Part shown: one piece after another, positions 1 through 6,993 of the stretch | Position numbering within the stretch: position 1 is the first letter of the stretch | Layout of the letters: every line of letters begins with the position of its first letter | Notes under the pieces: generated by a model | Databases searched by the model: none | What the model was told of the DNA's origin: nothing | What the model saw: only the letters and a program-made list of their open reading frames with translations | Made by a program: the position numbers and the translations under genes | IMG/VR virus record: IMGVR_UViG_2675903469_000006 | Span: 1-6,993 of that record | Origin: a virus | Lineage: Duplodnaviria; Heunggongvirae; Uroviricota; Caudoviricetes | DNA length: 6,993 bases | Strand: one strand, 5' to 3'

Positions 1-142
1 CCCCTATTAGCGGTTACCAGCGCCCCACCAGACCCGGTGACATCACCCCCCGGATCATGGACGACTGGGGGCAGTAATCATGCCGGGTCTGGCTGGCTAA
101 CACCCCATTATAAGGGGTACGAATAAAGTAACGGGGCGGGAT

Positions 143-340
143 ATGTATCAGATGGAAAAAATATCAACAGGCATTGCCTACGGCACCTCCGCCGGCAGTG
201 CCGGCTACTGGTTTTTGCAGTGGTTGGATCAGGTCAGTCCATCACAGTGGGCTGCGATTGGTGTGCTGGGAAGTCTGCTTCTGGGGCTTCTGACTTATCT
301 GACGAATCTGTATTTCAAAATAAGAGAAGATAAGCGTAAG
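143..340 (+). pseudogene. S: Class II holin (phage 21 S21-like pinholin), N-terminal fragment truncated by IS2 insertion
   Basis: ATG at 143 with a second in-frame ATG at 152 ([10 protein letters not shown]...). The translation [63 protein letters not shown] closely matches the phage 21 S21 pinholin as I recall it. The reading frame runs straight into the IS2 terminal inverted repeat at 341, and the track ORF 143..427 is the resulting chimeric read-through. Confidence 0.85.
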
Positions 341-381
341 TGGATTTGCCCCTATATTTCCAGACATCTGTTATCACTTAA
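341..381. repeat. IS2 terminal inverted repeat (right end, IRR)
   Basis: Imperfect inverted repeat partner of 1631..1671, seen directly in the sequence. Confidence 0.8.
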
Positions 382-1257
382 CCCATTACAAGCCCGCTGC
401 CGCAGATATTCCCGTGGCGAGCGATAACCCAGCGCACTATGCGGATGCCATTCGTTATAATGCTCGAACGCCTCTGCAAGGTTCTTTGCTGCCGTTAACC
501 CGTCTGGTTTGGGCATGATACTGATGTAGTCACGCTTTATCGTTTTCACGAAGCTCTCTGCTATTCCGTTACTCTCCGGACTCCGCACCGCCGTGTTCTT
601 CGGTTCAAGTCCCAACATCCGGGCGAACTGGCGTGTTTCATTAGCCCGGTAGCATGAACCATTATCCGTCAGCCACTCCACTGGAGACGACGGAAGATCG
701 TTGCCGAAGCGGCGTTCCACCGCTCCCAGCATGACGTCCTGTACTGTTTCACTGTTGAAGCCGCCGGTAGTCACCGCCCAGTGCAGTGCCTCACGATCAC
801 AGCAGTCCAGCGCGAACGTGACACGCAGTCTCTCTCCGTTATCACAGCAGAACTCGAACCCGTCAGAGCACCATCGCTGATTGCTTTCTTTCACGGCCAC
901 TCTGCCTGTATGTGCCCGTTTCGATGGCGGTACAGCAGGTTTTCGCTCAAGCAACAGCGCATTCTGGCGCATGATCCGGTAAACACGTTTGGCATTGATC
1001 GCAGGCATACCATCAAGTTCTGCCTGTCTGCGAAGCAGCGCCCATACCCGACGATAACCATACGTGGGCAGCTCTCCGATAACATGGTGTATACGGAGAA
1101 GCACATCCGTATCATCAGTGTGACGACTGCGGCGGCCATCCATCCAGTCATCGGTTCGTCTGAGAATGACGTGCAACTGCGCACGCGACACCCGGAGACA
1201 ACGGCTGACTAAGCTTACTCCCCATCCCCGGGCAATAAGGGCGCGTGCGCTATCCAC
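352..1257 (-). CDS. insD: IS2 transposase OrfB (InsD), DDE integrase-like catalytic domain
   Basis: 301-aa minus-strand ORF inside the IS2 boundaries. Sequence [21 protein letters not shown]...[11 protein letters not shown]...[19 protein letters not shown] is typical of IS3-family OrfB. It overlaps OrfA in the -1 frame. Confidence 0.95.
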
Positions 1258-1580
1258 TTTTTTGCCCGTCCATATTCAACGGCTTCTTTGAGGAGTTCAT
1301 TTTCCATCGTTTTCTTGCCGAGCAGGCGCTGGAGTTCTTTAATCTGCTTCATGGCGGCAGCAAGTTCAGAGGCAGGAACAACCTGTTCTCCGGCGGCGAC
1401 AGCAGTAAGACTTCCTTCCTGGTATTGCTTACGCCAGAGAAATAACTGGCTGGCTGCTACACCATGTTGCCGGGCAACGAGGGAGACCGTCATCCCCGGT
1501 TCAAAGCTCTGCTGAACAATTGCGATCTTTTCCTGTGTGGTACGCCGTCTGCGTTTCTCCGGCCCTAAGACATCAATCAT
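1215..1580 (-). CDS. insC: IS2 transposase OrfA (InsC), helix-turn-helix DNA-binding subunit
   Basis: 121-aa [44 protein letters not shown]... The track ORF begins 15 codons earlier at 1625, but that extension lies inside the terminal inverted repeat; the internal ATG at 1578..1580 gives the canonical 121-aa product. Confidence 0.9.
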
Positions 1581-1630
1581 CTGTACTCCAATGACTAGTC
1601 TAAAAACTAGTATTAAGACTATCACTTATT

Positions 1631-1671
1631 TAAGTGATACTGGTTGTCTGGAGATTCAGGGGGCCAGTCTA
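1631..1671. repeat. IS2 terminal inverted repeat (left end, IRL)
   Basis: Reverse complement matches 341..381 with a few mismatches. Confidence 0.8.
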
Positions 1672-1672
1672 A

Positions 1673-1693
1673 NNNNNNNNNNNNNNNNNNNNN
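1673..1693. other. Assembly gap (run of 21 N)
   Basis: Twenty-one consecutive ambiguous bases immediately after the IS2 end: a scaffold join, not biological sequence. Confidence 0.99.
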
Positions 1694-1797
1694 CGATTGG
1701 TGTGCTGGGAAGTCTGCTTCTGGGGCTTCTGACTTATCTGACAAATCTGTATTTCAAAATAAGAGAAGACAAGCGTAAGGCTGCGAGAGGTGAATAA
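1694..1797 (+). pseudogene. S: Class II holin (S21-like pinholin), C-terminal fragment resuming after the gap
   Basis: In-frame translation [33 protein letters not shown] followed by a stop (TAA 1795..1797), matching the S21 C-terminus. The first 85 bp near-duplicate 256..340 with 2 mismatches. Confidence 0.8.
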
Positions 1798-2294
1798 TGT
1801 CGCCATCATTACGCAAGGCTGTTGCAGCTGCTATTGGTGGTGGGGCTGTTGCTATAGCATCTGTGTTAATCACTGGCCCAGGTGGTAACGATGGTCTGGA
1901 AGGTGTCAGCTACATACCATACAAAGATATCATTGGTGTATGGACTGTATGTCACGGACACACCGGAAAAGACATCATGCTCGGTAAAACGTATACCGAA
2001 GCAGAATGCAAAGCCCTCCTGAATAAAGACCTTGCCACTGTCGCCAGACAAATTAACCCGTACATCAAAGTCGATATACCGGAAACAACGCGCGGCGCTC
2101 TTTACTCGTTCGTTTACAACGTGGGCGCTGGCAATTTCAGAACATCGACGCTTCTTCGCAAAATAAACCAGGGCGATATCAAAGGCGCATGTGACCAGCT
2201 ACGTCGCTGGACATATGCTGGCGGTAAGCAATGGAAAGGGCTGATGACCCGTCGTGAGATTGAGCGTGAAGTCTGTTTGTGGGGGCAGCAATGA
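1797..2294 (+). CDS. R: SAR endolysin (phage 21 R21-like lysozyme, glycoside hydrolase family 24)
   Basis: 165-aa ORF whose ATG overlaps the holin stop (TAATG). The Gly/Ala-rich N-terminus [30 protein letters not shown] is typical of a signal-anchor-release domain, followed by lysozyme-like sequence ([11 protein letters not shown]...[12 protein letters not shown]) very similar to R21 as recalled. Confidence 0.93.
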
Positions 2295-2755
2295 GCAGAG
2301 TCACCGCGATTATCTCCGCTCTGGTTATCTGCATCATCGTCTGCCTGTCATGGGCTGTTAATCATTACCGTGATAACGCCATTACCTACAAAGAGCAGCG
2401 CGACAAAAACGCAAGAGAACTGAAGCTGGCGAACGCAACCATTACTGACATGCAGCAGAGACAGCGTGATGTTAATGCACTCGATGCTAAATACACGAAG
2501 GAGTTAGCTGATGCGAAAGCTGAAAATGAAACTCTGCGCGCTGATGTTGCCGCTGGTCGTCGTCGGTTGCACATCAAAGCAGTCTGTCAGTCAGTGCGTG
2601 AAGCCACCACCGCCTCCGGCGTGGATAATGCAACCAGCCCCCGACTGGCAGACACCGCTGAACGGGATTATTTCACCCTCAGAGAGCGGCTGATGACGAT
2701 GCAGATGCAACTGGAAGGGGCACAGGAGTATATCCGCACTCAGTGCATTAAGTAG
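2291..2755 (+). CDS. Rz: Rz inner-membrane spanin (i-spanin)
   Basis: The ATG at 2291 overlaps the endolysin stop (ATGA). The product [60 protein letters not shown]... has an N-terminal transmembrane helix followed by coiled-coil sequence and is near-identical to lambda Rz as recalled. The track's GTG start at 2279 is less likely. Confidence 0.9.
2511..2693 (+). CDS. Rz1: Rz1 outer-membrane lipoprotein spanin (o-spanin), embedded in the +1 frame of Rz
   Basis: 60-aa ORF lying wholly inside Rz in another frame: [60 protein letters not shown]. It has a lipobox (LVVVGC) and a proline-rich stretch, matching lambda Rz1 as recalled. Confidence 0.85.
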
Positions 2756-2797
2756 CCTTTTTATCGTGGTAAACATTTCGCAGGGTATGAGGTATTT

Positions 2798-3148
2798 ATG
2801 CCATCACTAATCCCACGTGCCTGCCGTAAGCGTGGATGTGCAGGTACAACCACAGACAGTTCGGGTTACTGCGATAAACATCGCGGTGAAGGCTGGGTGC
2901 AGCACCAGCGCGGACTGAGCCGCCACCAGCGTGGCTATGGCTCAAAATGGACGGTGATTCGTGCCCGTATTCTGAAGCGCGATAAAGGTCTGTGTCAGTT
3001 GTGTCTGCGTGTCGGTGTGGTGAGCGAGGCGAAAACCGTCGACCACATCATCCCGAAAGCGCATGGCGGAACAGACGCAGACAGCAACCTGCAGAGTCTG
3101 TGCTGGCCCTGCCATAAAGCGAAAACAGCGCGCGAACGAATCCGGTGA
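2798..3148 (+). CDS. HNH endonuclease (phage packaging-associated; HK97 gp74-like position)
   Basis: 116-aa ORF with GAGG (2789..2792) 5 nt upstream of the ATG. It carries HNH and zinc-binding signatures (C-x2-C ... DHIIPKAHGG ... N ... CWPCH) and sits immediately upstream of the terminase small subunit. Confidence 0.85.
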   Translation: MPSLIPRACRKRGCAGTTTDSSGYCDKHRGEGWVQHQRGLSRHQRGYGSKWTVIRARILKRDKGLCQLCLRVGVVSEAKTVDHIIPKAHGGTDADSNLQSLCWPCHKAKTARERIR

Positions 3149-3166
3149 TAATTATTCTCACTTGTA

Positions 3167-3230
3167 GGGAGGGGCGGGGCAAATCCCTGTGACCTGACGT
3201 CTTCCGGACTGCCCGCCCCATCGTTTTTTT
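3167..3230. other. GC-rich inverted repeat followed by a T7 run in the HNH-terS intergenic region; candidate cos/packaging site or terminator-like hairpin
   Basis: GGGGCGGGGCA (3171..3181) pairs with TGCCCGCCCC (3210..3219) with one bulge, across a loop of about 28 nt, followed by ATCG and TTTTTTT (3224..3230). It lies exactly where HK97-like phages place cos. Any function is inference. Confidence 0.4.
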
Positions 3231-3269
3231 ATACCCGCGAAAAATGAAATTTAACCAGGAGTGCCGCAT

Positions 3270-3764
3270 ATGGCTGGAACGGCGGGGCGTTCCGGGCGTC
3301 GCCCCAAGCCAACGGCGCGCAAGGCGCTGGCCGGAAACCCCGGCAAGCGAGCCCTGAACAAAGATGAACCTGTTTTTACGCCCATCAAAGGTGTTGAGCC
3401 ACCAGAGTGGTTCGCTGAAGAAGATCTCCCTCTCGCCACGATCATGTGGCAACTGACAACCAAAGAACTCTGCGGTCAGGGCCTGCTGTGCGTGACTGAC
3501 CTGGCGGTACTTGAGCGGTGGTGCGTGGCCTATGAGTTCTGGCGACGTGCCGTGAAAAATATTGCCATACAGGGCAACACCATCACCGGTGCAATGGGCG
3601 GCAGGGTCAAAAATCCGGAGCTGACCGCCAAAAAAGAACAGGAGTCCGAGATGAGCAGCACGGGGGCAATGCTCGGACTCGACCCCAGCAGCCGCCAGCG
3701 TCTGATTGGCCTGGCGGGGCAGAAGAAAGCCACTAACCCGTTTCTGAAAATTATCGAATCATGA
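3270..3764 (+). CDS. Terminase small subunit (P27 family / Terminase_4-like)
   Basis: AGGAG (3257..3261) lies 8 nt upstream of ATG 3270; the track's GTG at 3261 is too close to that site. [34 protein letters not shown]... contains the GNPGKR motif typical of P27-family small terminases. The stop overlaps the terL start (ATGA). Confidence 0.85.
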
Positions 3765-5494
3765 GCCGGAAATCTTACCCCAACGTAAATGCTGCAAATC
3801 AGTATGCCCGGGATGTCGTGCGCGGAAAGATTGTTGCCTGCCAGTTTGTGATTCAGGCCTGCCAGCGCCATCTTGATGACCTGATGGCGGAAAAAAGTAA
3901 GTCGTTTCGTTACCGCTTCGACAAGGACCTGGCTGAACGGGCCGCGAAATTTATTCAGCTGTTGCCGCACACCAAGGGGGAGTGGGCATTCAAACGGATG
4001 CCCATCACGCTGGAGCCGTGGCAGCTATTTGTGATCTGCTGTGCGTTTGGCTGGGTCAATAAAGGCACCCGGTTGCGCCGCTTCCGGGAGGTGTACACCG
4101 AAATCCCCCGTAAGAACGGCAAATCAGCAATCTCTGCCGGTGTTGCCCTGTATTGTTTTGCCTGTGATAACGAGTTTGGCGCGGAAGTGTATTCCGGTGC
4201 CACGACAGAGAAACAGGCGTGGGAAGTCTTTCGCCCGGCGCGACTGATGTGTAAACGCACACCCATGCTGACGGAAGCGTTCGGGATTGAGGTTAACGCC
4301 TCAAACATGAACCGTCCGGAGGATGGCGCGCGGTTTGAACCGCTGATCGGCAACCCAGGTGATGGTTCATCACCCCACTGTGCCGTGGTTGATGAATATC
4401 ACGAGCATGCCACCGATGCGCTTTATACCACAATGCTTACCGGGATGGGGGCGCGACGTCAGCCACTGATGTGGGCCATCACCACCGCCGGGTACAACAT
4501 TGAGGGGCCGTGCTACGACAAGCGGCGGGAAGTCATCGAGATGCTCAACGGCTCGGTGCCTAACGATGAACTGTTCGGGATCATCTATACCGTTGATGAA
4601 GGTGACGACTGGACCGGCCCGCAGGTGCTGGAAAAAGCCAATCCAAATATTGGCGTGTCGGTTTATCGCGAATTTTTGTTAAGTCAGCAGCAGCGTGCGA
4701 AAAATAACGCCCGTCTGGCAAACGTCTTTAAAACAAAACACCTCAATATCTGGGTGTCGGCGCGTTCGGCGTATTTCAACTTGGTGAGCTGGCAGAGCTG
4801 CGAGGATAAATCACTGACCCTTGAGCAGTTCGAGGGGCAGCCGTGCATTCTGGCCTTTGACCTGGCGCGTAAGCTGGATATGAACAGCATGGCGCGACTT
4901 TATACCCGCGAGATTGACGGTAAAACGCATTACTACAGTGTGGCCCCGCGTTTCTGGGTACCGTATGACACGGTGTACAGCGTCGAGAAAAATGAAGATC
5001 GACGGACAGCCGAACGCTTTCAGAAATGGGTGGAAATGGGCGTTCTGACCGTTACCGATGGTGCGGAGGTGGATTATCGCTACATCCTCGAGGAGGCCAA
5101 AGCGGCGAACAAAATCAGCCCGGTCAGTGAGTCACCCATCGACCCCTTCGGGGCGACCGGGTTGTCACATGACCTTGCTGATGAAGACCTGAATCCCGTC
5201 ACTATCGTCCAGAACTTCACCAATATGTCCGATCCGATGAAAGAGCTGGAAGCAGCGATTGAATCGGGACGTTTTCATCATGACGGCAATCCCATCATGA
5301 CCTGGTGTATCGGCAACGTGGTCGGCAAAAACATGCCGGGTAACGATGATGTGGTGAAACCCGTCAAAGAGCAGGCGGAAAACAAAATCGATGGTGCAGT
5401 TGCGCTGATTATGGCGGTTGGCAGAGCCATGCTGTACGAGAAAGAAGACACGCTGTCTGACCACATTGAGTCCTACGGGATCCGCTCGCTTTAA
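3761..5494 (+). CDS. Terminase large subunit (HK97-like, Terminase_1 family; ATPase plus nuclease)
   Basis: 577-aa ORF translationally coupled to terS, with a Walker A-like motif (IPRKNGKS) and a long conserved C-terminal region. It is the largest ORF in the window and sits in the canonical position. Confidence 0.93.
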
Positions 5495-5505
5495 CTGAGG
5501 TAATT

Positions 5506-5688
5506 ATGATCATGCTGATTCTCGCGCCTCTGGTGGGCGTGCTGGGTGCGCTTTTGCTGGCGTATGGTGCCTGGCTGATTTATCCCCCGGCGGGTTTTGT
5601 TGTTGCCGGGGCGCTGTGCCTGTTCTGGTCGTGGCTGGTGGCGCGATATCTCGACCGTACACGGCAGTCTGTCGGCGGAGGTAAATAG
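5506..5688 (+). CDS. Small hypothetical membrane protein (about 60 aa, two predicted transmembrane helices)
   Basis: GAGG (5497..5500) lies 5 nt upstream of ATG 5506. [60 protein letters not shown] is highly hydrophobic with a basic C-terminus. Its stop TAG overlaps the GTG of the following portal frame (TAGTG). No family assignment possible from sequence alone. Confidence 0.5.
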
Positions 5689-6844
5689 TGTTCTTTTCGG
5701 GATTATTTCAACGAAAAAGCGATGTGCCGGTGACCACGCCAGCAGAACTGCTGATGCTATCGGGCTGTCATACGACACCTATACCGGAAAGCGGATCAGT
5801 AGCCAGCGGGCCATGCGCCTGACGGCGGTCTATTCTTGCGTCAGGGTGCTGGCAGAGTCTGTTGGTATGCTGCCCTGCAGTCTCTACAAAATCAGCGGTA
5901 CCCTGAAAACACGGGCGGTGGATGAACGACTGCATAAGTTGGTTTCGGCAAAACCTAATGGCTACATGACACCGCAGGAATTCTGGGAGCTGGTTATTGT
6001 CTGCCTGTGTCTACGGGGGAATTTTTACGCCTACAAGGTAAAGGCACTGGGAGAAGTGGTGGAGCTTCTTCCGATAGATCCGGGCTGTGTGGAACCGAAG
6101 CTGAACAGCCAGTGGCAGCCGGTTTATCAGGTGACGTTTCCGGATGGTTCCGTGGATGTGTTGACCCAGAATGAAATCTGGCATGTGCGCACCCTGACGC
6201 TGGATGGACTTGTCGGGCTGAATCCCATTGCGTATGCGCGTGAGGCCATTTCACTGGCAGCGGCAACCGAGGAGCACGGTGCCAGGTTGTTTAGTAATGG
6301 TGCGGTGACATCCGGTGTGTTGCGTACGGAACAAAAGCTCACGCCGGATGCTTACGAGCGTCTGAAGAAAGATTTTGAGGAGTGTCACACGGGGCTTGGC
6401 AATGCTCACCGCCCGATGATTCTGGAAATGGGGCTGGACTGGAAGTCGATGGCGCTGAACGCCGAGGACAGTCAGTTCCTGGAAACCCGCAAGTTTCAGC
6501 TGGAAGAAATCTGTCGTCTGTTCCGGGTGCCGTTGCACATGGTGCAGAACACCGATCGCGCCACCTTCAACAATATCGAAGAGCTGGGGCTGGGATTTAT
6601 CAACTATTCACTGGTGCCGTATCTGACCCGCATCGAACAGCGGATCAACACCGGACTGGTACGAAAAAGTAAGCAGGGCGTTTATTACGCCAAATTTAAC
6701 GCCGGGGCGTTACTGCGCGGGGATATGAAGTCCCGTTTTGAAGCCTACGCCACCGGGATCAACTGGGGAATTTACTCTTCCAATGACTGCCGCGACCTGG
6801 AAGATATGAATCCGCGTCCCGGTGGTGTAATGCCGATCAGTTAA
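5688..6844 (+). CDS. Portal protein (HK97 family), apparently frameshifted near the 5' end and 3'-truncated by IS4
   Basis: The long frame (track 5597..6844) carries a portal-like core (AMRLTAVYSCVRVLAESVGMLP ... through the C-terminus). The only convincing start is the GTG at 5688, with GGAGG at 5677..5681, but it is in a different frame: MFFSGLFQRKSDVPVTTPAEL reads on to a stop at 5820..5822. The conserved frame has no plausible start before M at 5813. The last five codons (VMPIS, then stop) are encoded by the putative IS4 end. Confidence 0.8.
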
Positions 6845-6876
6845 GGATCAGTTGACCGATCCAGTGGCTGTGTAAG

Positions 6877-6912
6877 AATCCGGAAACGCTCACTTGTTTC
6901 CGGATTTTTTTA
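6877..6912 (+). terminator. Hairpin plus T-run (rho-independent terminator-like) just upstream of the IS4 transposase start
   Basis: AATCCGGAAAC (6877..6887), loop GCTCACTT, then GTTTCCGGATT (6896..6906) running into TTTTTTT. It may shield the transposase from read-through transcription. Confidence 0.45.
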
Positions 6913-6993
6913 TGCACATTGGACAGGCTCTTGATCTGGTATCCCGTTACGATTCTCTGCGTAACCCACTGACTTCTCTGGGGGATTACCTCG
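6912..6993 (+). CDS. insG: IS4 transposase (InsG-like), N-terminal 27 codons only; runs off the window
   Basis: ATG at 6912; translation MHIGQALDLVSRYDSLRNPLTSLGDYL. Identification is by recalled similarity and needs a database check. Confidence 0.6.
   Translation, partial: MHIGQALDLVSRYDSLRNPLTSLGDYL

Follow-up and report, generated by a model that had tools for sequence, protein, structure and literature searches.

The window, by which we mean the whole 6,993-nt stretch of DNA analysed here, is best read as part of a Shigella sonnei draft assembly in which two unlinked contigs were joined over 21 N, with an IS2 element lying in the pinholin gene of the first; we put the probability of this reading at roughly 90%. 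The left piece (1-1672), from what we call locus A, contains the end of an ISEc20 element, a run of G, the 5' part of a holin gene, IS2 and one extra base. The right piece (1694-6993), from locus B, extends from the 3' part of a second holin gene through to the start of an IS4. Between them, at 1672-1693, a single 'a' and 21 N (N run 1673-1693) form a scaffold join between loci that lie 2.2-2.7 Mb apart within the same S. sonnei chromosomes: locus B and locus A were found at 0.95 Mb and 3.68 Mb in UGZB01000001.1, at 0.89 Mb and 3.06 Mb in LR213449.1, and at 0.06 Mb and 2.72 Mb in JBEAAD010000003.1.

The join was revealed by comparing the window with itself. The 86 nt at 1694-1779 repeat positions 255-340 with 2 mismatches, both synonymous (codon 54, ACG/ACA; codon 63, GAT/GAC), and at these distinguishing SNPs the locus A allele reads G304 and T331. 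The right piece begins partway through a holin gene, 81 nt upstream of the IS2 target site, crosses that site intact (...AAGCGTAAG/GCTGCGAGAGGTGAATAATG, the slash marking the site) and continues straight into the endolysin gene; the first SNP that tells the alleles apart falls 49 nt after the start of the piece, at approximately k-mer length. All 5300 nt of 1694-6993 matched locus B at 100% identity in L010, L011, L012 and L014, four chromosome-scale records of which three are complete chromosomes and the fourth a near-complete NCTC contig. Against the true sequence downstream of IS2 at locus A, the right piece was 97.8% identical over 768 nt only, and the same comparison found no similarity beyond window position 2541. 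An overlap carrying locus-defining SNPs, together with the 100% match to locus B, indicates that scaffolding created the join artificially; the window's endolysin, spanin and terminase genes are therefore not downstream of its IS2. The first-pass annotation had assembled 143-340 and 1779-1797 into one interrupted gene. Its insertion point, after codon 66, was correct; the 3' segment at 1779-1797 belongs to locus B, where the holin is an intact 71-aa gene, and the 86-nt overlap, two SNPs and locus B match are not what a continuation of the interrupted gene across the gap would look like. Assigning the right-hand genes to the same locus, as that annotation also did, was thus mistaken.

The alternative it implied is a single prophage, in which IS2 split the pinholin gene, the gap hides only the 5-bp target duplication, the right-hand genes lie downstream and lysis is abolished. 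Several of its elements are sound: the left junction holds up, S. sonnei does have a simple insertion flanked by a 5-bp duplication, and the 3' end of a holin gene and an endolysin do come after IS2 in the true locus. However, simple insertion cannot generate a right piece that starts 81 nt upstream of the target, runs through it uninterrupted and differs at two SNPs. The perfect match to locus B, as against 97.8% to locus A with similarity lost after about 850 nt, is equally at odds with a single prophage, as is the fact that locus A runs into DedA and Terminase_3 genes, not into HNH and Terminase_4. We consider a single prophage most unlikely. What the gap joins is two paralogous lysis cassettes, which invalidates any inference drawn across it about a lysis defect, packaging type or completeness; the useful output of the analysis is a flag that the join at 1673-1693 is artefactual.

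We next consider the insertion itself, which finished genomes resolve on both sides. GTAAG, the 5-bp target-site duplication, has its left copy at 336-340 and its right copy outside the window. In complete S. sonnei chromosomes the junctions read GCGTAAG/IS2/GTAAGGCTGCGAG, and at least 8 chromosome-scale S. sonnei records have IS2/GTAAG/GCTGCGAGAGGTGAATAATG on the right side (in a longer reading, GCGTAAG/IS2/GTAAGGCTGCGAGAGGTGAATAATG). The duplication that the first-pass annotation supposed to be hidden by the gap is thus present, with GTAAG on both sides of the element in these records. After the right GTAAG, the 8 records continue with the last five holin codons (AARGE) and then the endolysin start; the true locus A sequence past IS2 is GTAAGGCTGCG followed by the locus A endolysin, whose allele is marked by a T at '...tacatacTatacaaag'. 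The empty site, with a single GTAAG, was found in uninterrupted E. coli alleles with 100% identity to window 133-340. The holin::IS2 fusion product occurred on 234 contigs, with 18 index blocks having a longest contig >1 Mb, and public databases already list it under the name 'lysis protein S [Shigella sonnei]'. The choice of query determined what was recovered: the 94-aa fusion returned only short contigs broken in the IS, and the 91-aa form from Met4 returned finished chromosomes. Among 5,426 complete E. coli genomes, megablast with window 1-640 found no record covering the left junction, a result that argued against E. coli sensu stricto, and an exact 41-mer of the junction had no match in GTDB species-representative genomes.

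These data also bear on whether the source strain has an IS2 at this holin at all, or whether the holin::IS2 junction is an assembler chimera. IS2 is multicopy, and the contig stops exactly at the far end of the element plus one non-matching base, as might be expected of a chimera. Yet independent assemblies, both short-read and finished, show this very junction together with the upstream ISEc20 end, and a matching 5-bp duplication accompanies it, which makes a chimeric junction scarcely credible.

The extra base at 1672 is an 'a' where all finished genomes carry 'g', the first base of GTAAG. We could exclude the identical IS2 copy near bamE as its source, since the flank of that copy also begins with G (GTGTC). 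The 'a' is probably an artefact of gap filling or consensus calling at a repeat boundary. We envisage that a scaffolder or assembler linked the contigs through the identical holin 5' halves of the two loci, and that gap filling next proceeded across the multicopy IS2 and ended one base past it, where the flanks of the copies diverge; such gap filling would also account for the 'a'.

The same base could instead be taken as a sign of a real, strain-specific rearrangement, in which IS2 copies or the ~98% identical cassettes recombined to place holin::IS2 beside locus B, with the gap hiding a stretch of sequence. S. sonnei chromosomes are known to be rearranged by IS (PMC7373316), locus B is bracketed by IS2 copies, and base 1672 does differ from the canonical flank. 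Nevertheless, a right piece that starts mid-holin and 49 nt before the first SNP resembles a k-mer graph boundary and not a recombination joint, and recombination between IS2 and the neighbouring copy would have put GTGTC or bamE after the IS. Moreover, the canonical locus A arrangement was retained in 10 of the 10 chromosome-scale records examined. We regard a rearrangement as improbable and favour an artefactual join of two unlinked contigs.

A genuine 86-bp duplication was likewise considered and rejected, as it is absent from finished genomes, its two copies carry locus-defining SNPs, and the duplications made by IS2 are 5 bp long. A join of the same type occurs in another public draft contig of S. 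sonnei (CXFC01000326.1, 1-1962), where a holin::IS2 fragment is followed by a single 'n' and then by a complete holin and an endolysin. The SNP pattern of that endolysin matched neither locus A nor locus B exactly. This contig suggests that such misassembly recurs, and that a third S21-type cassette or a recombinant allele may exist.

The inserted element is a complete IS2 of the IS3 family, 1331 bp long, at 341-1671 on the minus strand, with IRR at the 341 end and IRL at the 1671 end. Its reverse complement differed from E. coli K-12 MG1655 IS2A at 4 of 1331 positions (99.7% identity). The orfA product InsC (1215-1580, minus strand, 121 aa; Pfam HTH_Tnp_1) was identical to K-12 InsC1, and the orfB product in the InsD frame (352-1257, minus strand, 301 aa; Pfam HTH_21, rve and rve_3) was identical to K-12 InsD1; the orfA/orfB overlap contains the A6G (AAAAAAG) site for programmed -1 frameshifting (1257-1263, minus strand). 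The IRR begins at 341 (TGGATTTGCCCC...) and is the same as that of K-12, the IRL finishes at 1671 (...GGGGGCCAGTCTA) with one substitution at IS2 position 32, and inverted-repeat arms at 349-381 pair with 1630-1662. The first-pass annotation had recognized from the letters alone an intact, reversed IS2 with both terminal repeats, both ORFs and A6G, and these comparisons bear it out in every respect.

IS2 moves by a copy-out/paste-in pathway, using an OrfAB transposase made by -1 frameshifting at A6G. The copy in the holin shares with K-12 IS2A (IS3 family, IS2 group; located in yaiX) its 1331-bp length, InsC and InsD, the A6G site and both the IRL and IRR, and a 5-bp target duplication was seen in finished genomes. 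It differs from IS2A by 4 substitutions, one of them an A to G at position 32 in the IRL region. Window 1-1671 was 100% identical to three chromosome-scale S. sonnei records (L019, L020 and L026), and a second, 100% identical IS2 copy lies elsewhere in the same genomes with a 5-bp duplication of its own, GTGTC. An identical copy with a different duplication indicates that this IS2 variant has moved. Judged by its sequence, the copy in the holin is apparently transposition-competent, and the variant, being common to another S. sonnei copy, appears to be a local and still-moving form of IS2.

Upstream of the holin, positions 1-132 (minus strand) are the right end of an ISEc20-like element of the IS110 family, which interrupts the run of G 10 bp before the start codon of the holin. 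The whole element could be seen in record L003 (258-1707), where it encodes a 398-aa DEDD_Tnp_IS110 transposase, and was 99.5% identical to E. coli elements annotated 'IS110-like element ISEc20'. It accompanied the holin IS2 in the majority of S. sonnei records but not in all of them: L022 and L024 carry IS2, lack ISEc20 and have an uninterrupted run of 11 G. Compared with these 11 G, the arrangement of 7 G, IS and 4 G shows that ISEc20 made no target duplication, and the existence of records with IS2 but without ISEc20 indicates that the IS2 insertion is the older and ISEc20 came later.

The history of the locus would then be as follows. IS2 is proposed to have transposed into the S21-type pinholin gene of locus A between codons 66 and 67, duplicating GTAAG, and ISEc20 to have landed later 10 bp upstream of the start codon of the same holin. 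The true continuation after IS2 comprises GTAAG, the last five holin codons, the SAR endolysin and spanin genes of locus A, a gene of the DedA family and a packaging module of Terminase_3 type. In the chromosomes, the observed gene order after IS2 was endolysin, Rz, DedA-family, Terminase_3 large subunit, Phage_portal_3 and Mu-F-like head genes. Further IS elements, including IS3-family elements and IS1, are found throughout locus A, which is a decayed lambdoid prophage, a cryptic remnant.

The interrupted gene (143-340, plus strand; codons 1-66, locus A allele) encodes the 5' part of an S21-like class II holin, or pinholin, of Pfam family PF04971. The match to 'Bacteriophage P21 holin S' (E=1.7e-34) covered residues 5-66 and profile positions 1-62 of 64, and the rebuilt 71-aa holin shared 91.5% identity with phage 21 S21-71. 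IS2 interrupts the frame behind codon 66 (position 340), where the native residues end in ...REDKRK, and the retained 5' part was 100% identical to intact alleles in two E. coli records (L001 and L002). These matches confirm the earlier identification of an S21-like holin cut after KRK. Residues 1-66 aligned without gaps to S21-71, including the dual-start Met1 and Met4, and with topology taken from the S21 literature and transferred by our alignment, the SAR-like TMD1 and the pore-lining TMD2 lie wholly upstream of IS2. Reading on into IS2 yields a fusion ORF (143-427, plus strand) of 94 aa, or 91 aa from Met4, composed of 66 holin and 28 IS2-encoded residues.

The SAR endolysin adjoins the holin: at locus A, a 165-aa Phage_lysozyme gene follows IS2, GTAAG and 18 nt. 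This organization resembles the phage 21 cassette (S21-71/S21-68, R21, Rz/Rz1; OL657228.1), which has the same gene order, its record annotating a dual-start antiholin/pinholin, a SAR endolysin and spanins in that succession. In phage 21 and here alike, the endolysin start overlaps the holin stop, and the holins are 91.5% and the endolysins 96% identical. In comparison to phage 21, the last 5 holin residues of locus A are swapped for the 28 IS2-encoded ones, and, unlike in that viable phage, the cassettes here sit in IS-ridden prophage remnants.

The dual-start motif is MYQM (window 143-154; L011 7786-7797), as opposed to MKSM in phage 21, and the MYQM allele is common in E. coli prophages (WP_000284485.1). 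The extra N-terminal lysine of S21-71 is thought to be responsible for its antiholin character. With MYQ in place of MKS, the longer product lacks this lysine.

An element inside a gene need not mean loss of function, and the earlier expectation that this insertion should abolish holin function is too strong. In the fusion product both transmembrane domains survive, as do 66 of 71 residues (63 of 68 in S21-68 numbering). In a systematic truncation study, the S21-68 C-terminus was 'largely dispensable for assembly', with effects of truncation only at K56: truncations down to residue 56 gave pores, and C-terminal fusions to the 56-residue S21 core remained pore-forming (bioRxiv 10.1101/2021.04.20.440580). 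Since only five C-terminal residues are replaced, in a region found by experiment to be dispensable, loss of holin function cannot be assumed; by analogy with those constructs, exchanging 5 cytoplasmic residues for a 28-residue IS tail need not destroy pore formation. The predicted loss of programmed lysis is in any case moot, as the prophage that carries the gene is already riddled with other IS.

A loss of expression, together with polarity, would be a likelier consequence than loss of holin function. IS2 would place 1.3 kb of antisense IS between the pinholin gene and the translationally abutted endolysin and spanin genes, and ISEc20 and IS2 together would sever the pinholin from the late promoter. 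On general grounds, an IS2 in this orientation would be expected to be polar. Most likely, the locus A cassette has been silenced or uncoupled, and not enzymatically killed. There is little likelihood, in our view, that the fusion is a stable and pore-competent pinholin variant (63 of 68 S21-68 residues plus a basic tail) kept across S. sonnei lineages while uncoupled from its endolysin. If it were, the gene would not be dead, and might for example serve as a domesticated membrane-depolarising or abortive-infection-like factor.

These features fit the known genome biology of Shigella. S. sonnei 53G is reported to contain expanded numbers of IS1, IS2, IS4, ISEc20 and other elements, and the five IS that have expanded in every Shigella species include IS2 and IS4 (PMC7373316). 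The window, with IS2, IS4 and ISEc20 within 7 kb, is one more instance of the IS-driven pseudogenisation in Shigella described by Hawkey et al. 2020 (PMC7373316), a paper in which prophage and holin targets are unmentioned. An IS2 in a cryptic-prophage gene is routine in Shigella, combining a known element, a known kind of target and a known species.

Locus B is a prophage remnant with an intact lysis cassette. All of its features in the window are on the plus strand, beginning with the 3' part of the second, uninterrupted pinholin gene (1694-1797; codons 38-71, locus B allele), which is complete in the chromosomes (71 aa; L010-L012 and L014). There follow the SAR endolysin (1797-2294; 96% identical to phage 21 R21), Rz with embedded Rz1 (2291-2755), an HNH endonuclease gene immediately upstream of TerS (2798-3148), the Terminase_4 small subunit TerS (3270-3764), TerL (3761-5494) and an HK97-type portal gene (5813-6844), as assigned by Pfam. 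The portal gene has its 3' end cut off by an IS4, of which only the start is in the window (6827-6993); it was 100% identical to 'IS4-like element IS4' in E. coli, with identity running from about query position 227-229 onward, and an IS4 transposase gene comes after the portal gene in L012-L014. In the chromosomes, the order at locus B was DnaB, RusA, Q, ORF6N, intact holin, endolysin, Rz, HNH, Terminase_4, TerL and portal. Past the portal, finished genomes continue with IS4, another IS2 and then bamE/recN, which indicates that nothing of locus B beyond the portal gene remains. There is nothing unusual in the order HNH-TerS-TerL, which is typical of HK97-like cos packaging. Locus B lies between two IS2 copies, at ~470-3065 and 14150-15485 in L010-L014, one of which is 97.6% and the other 100% identical to the IS2 of the window, indicating that two diverged IS2 subpopulations coexist in S. 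sonnei.
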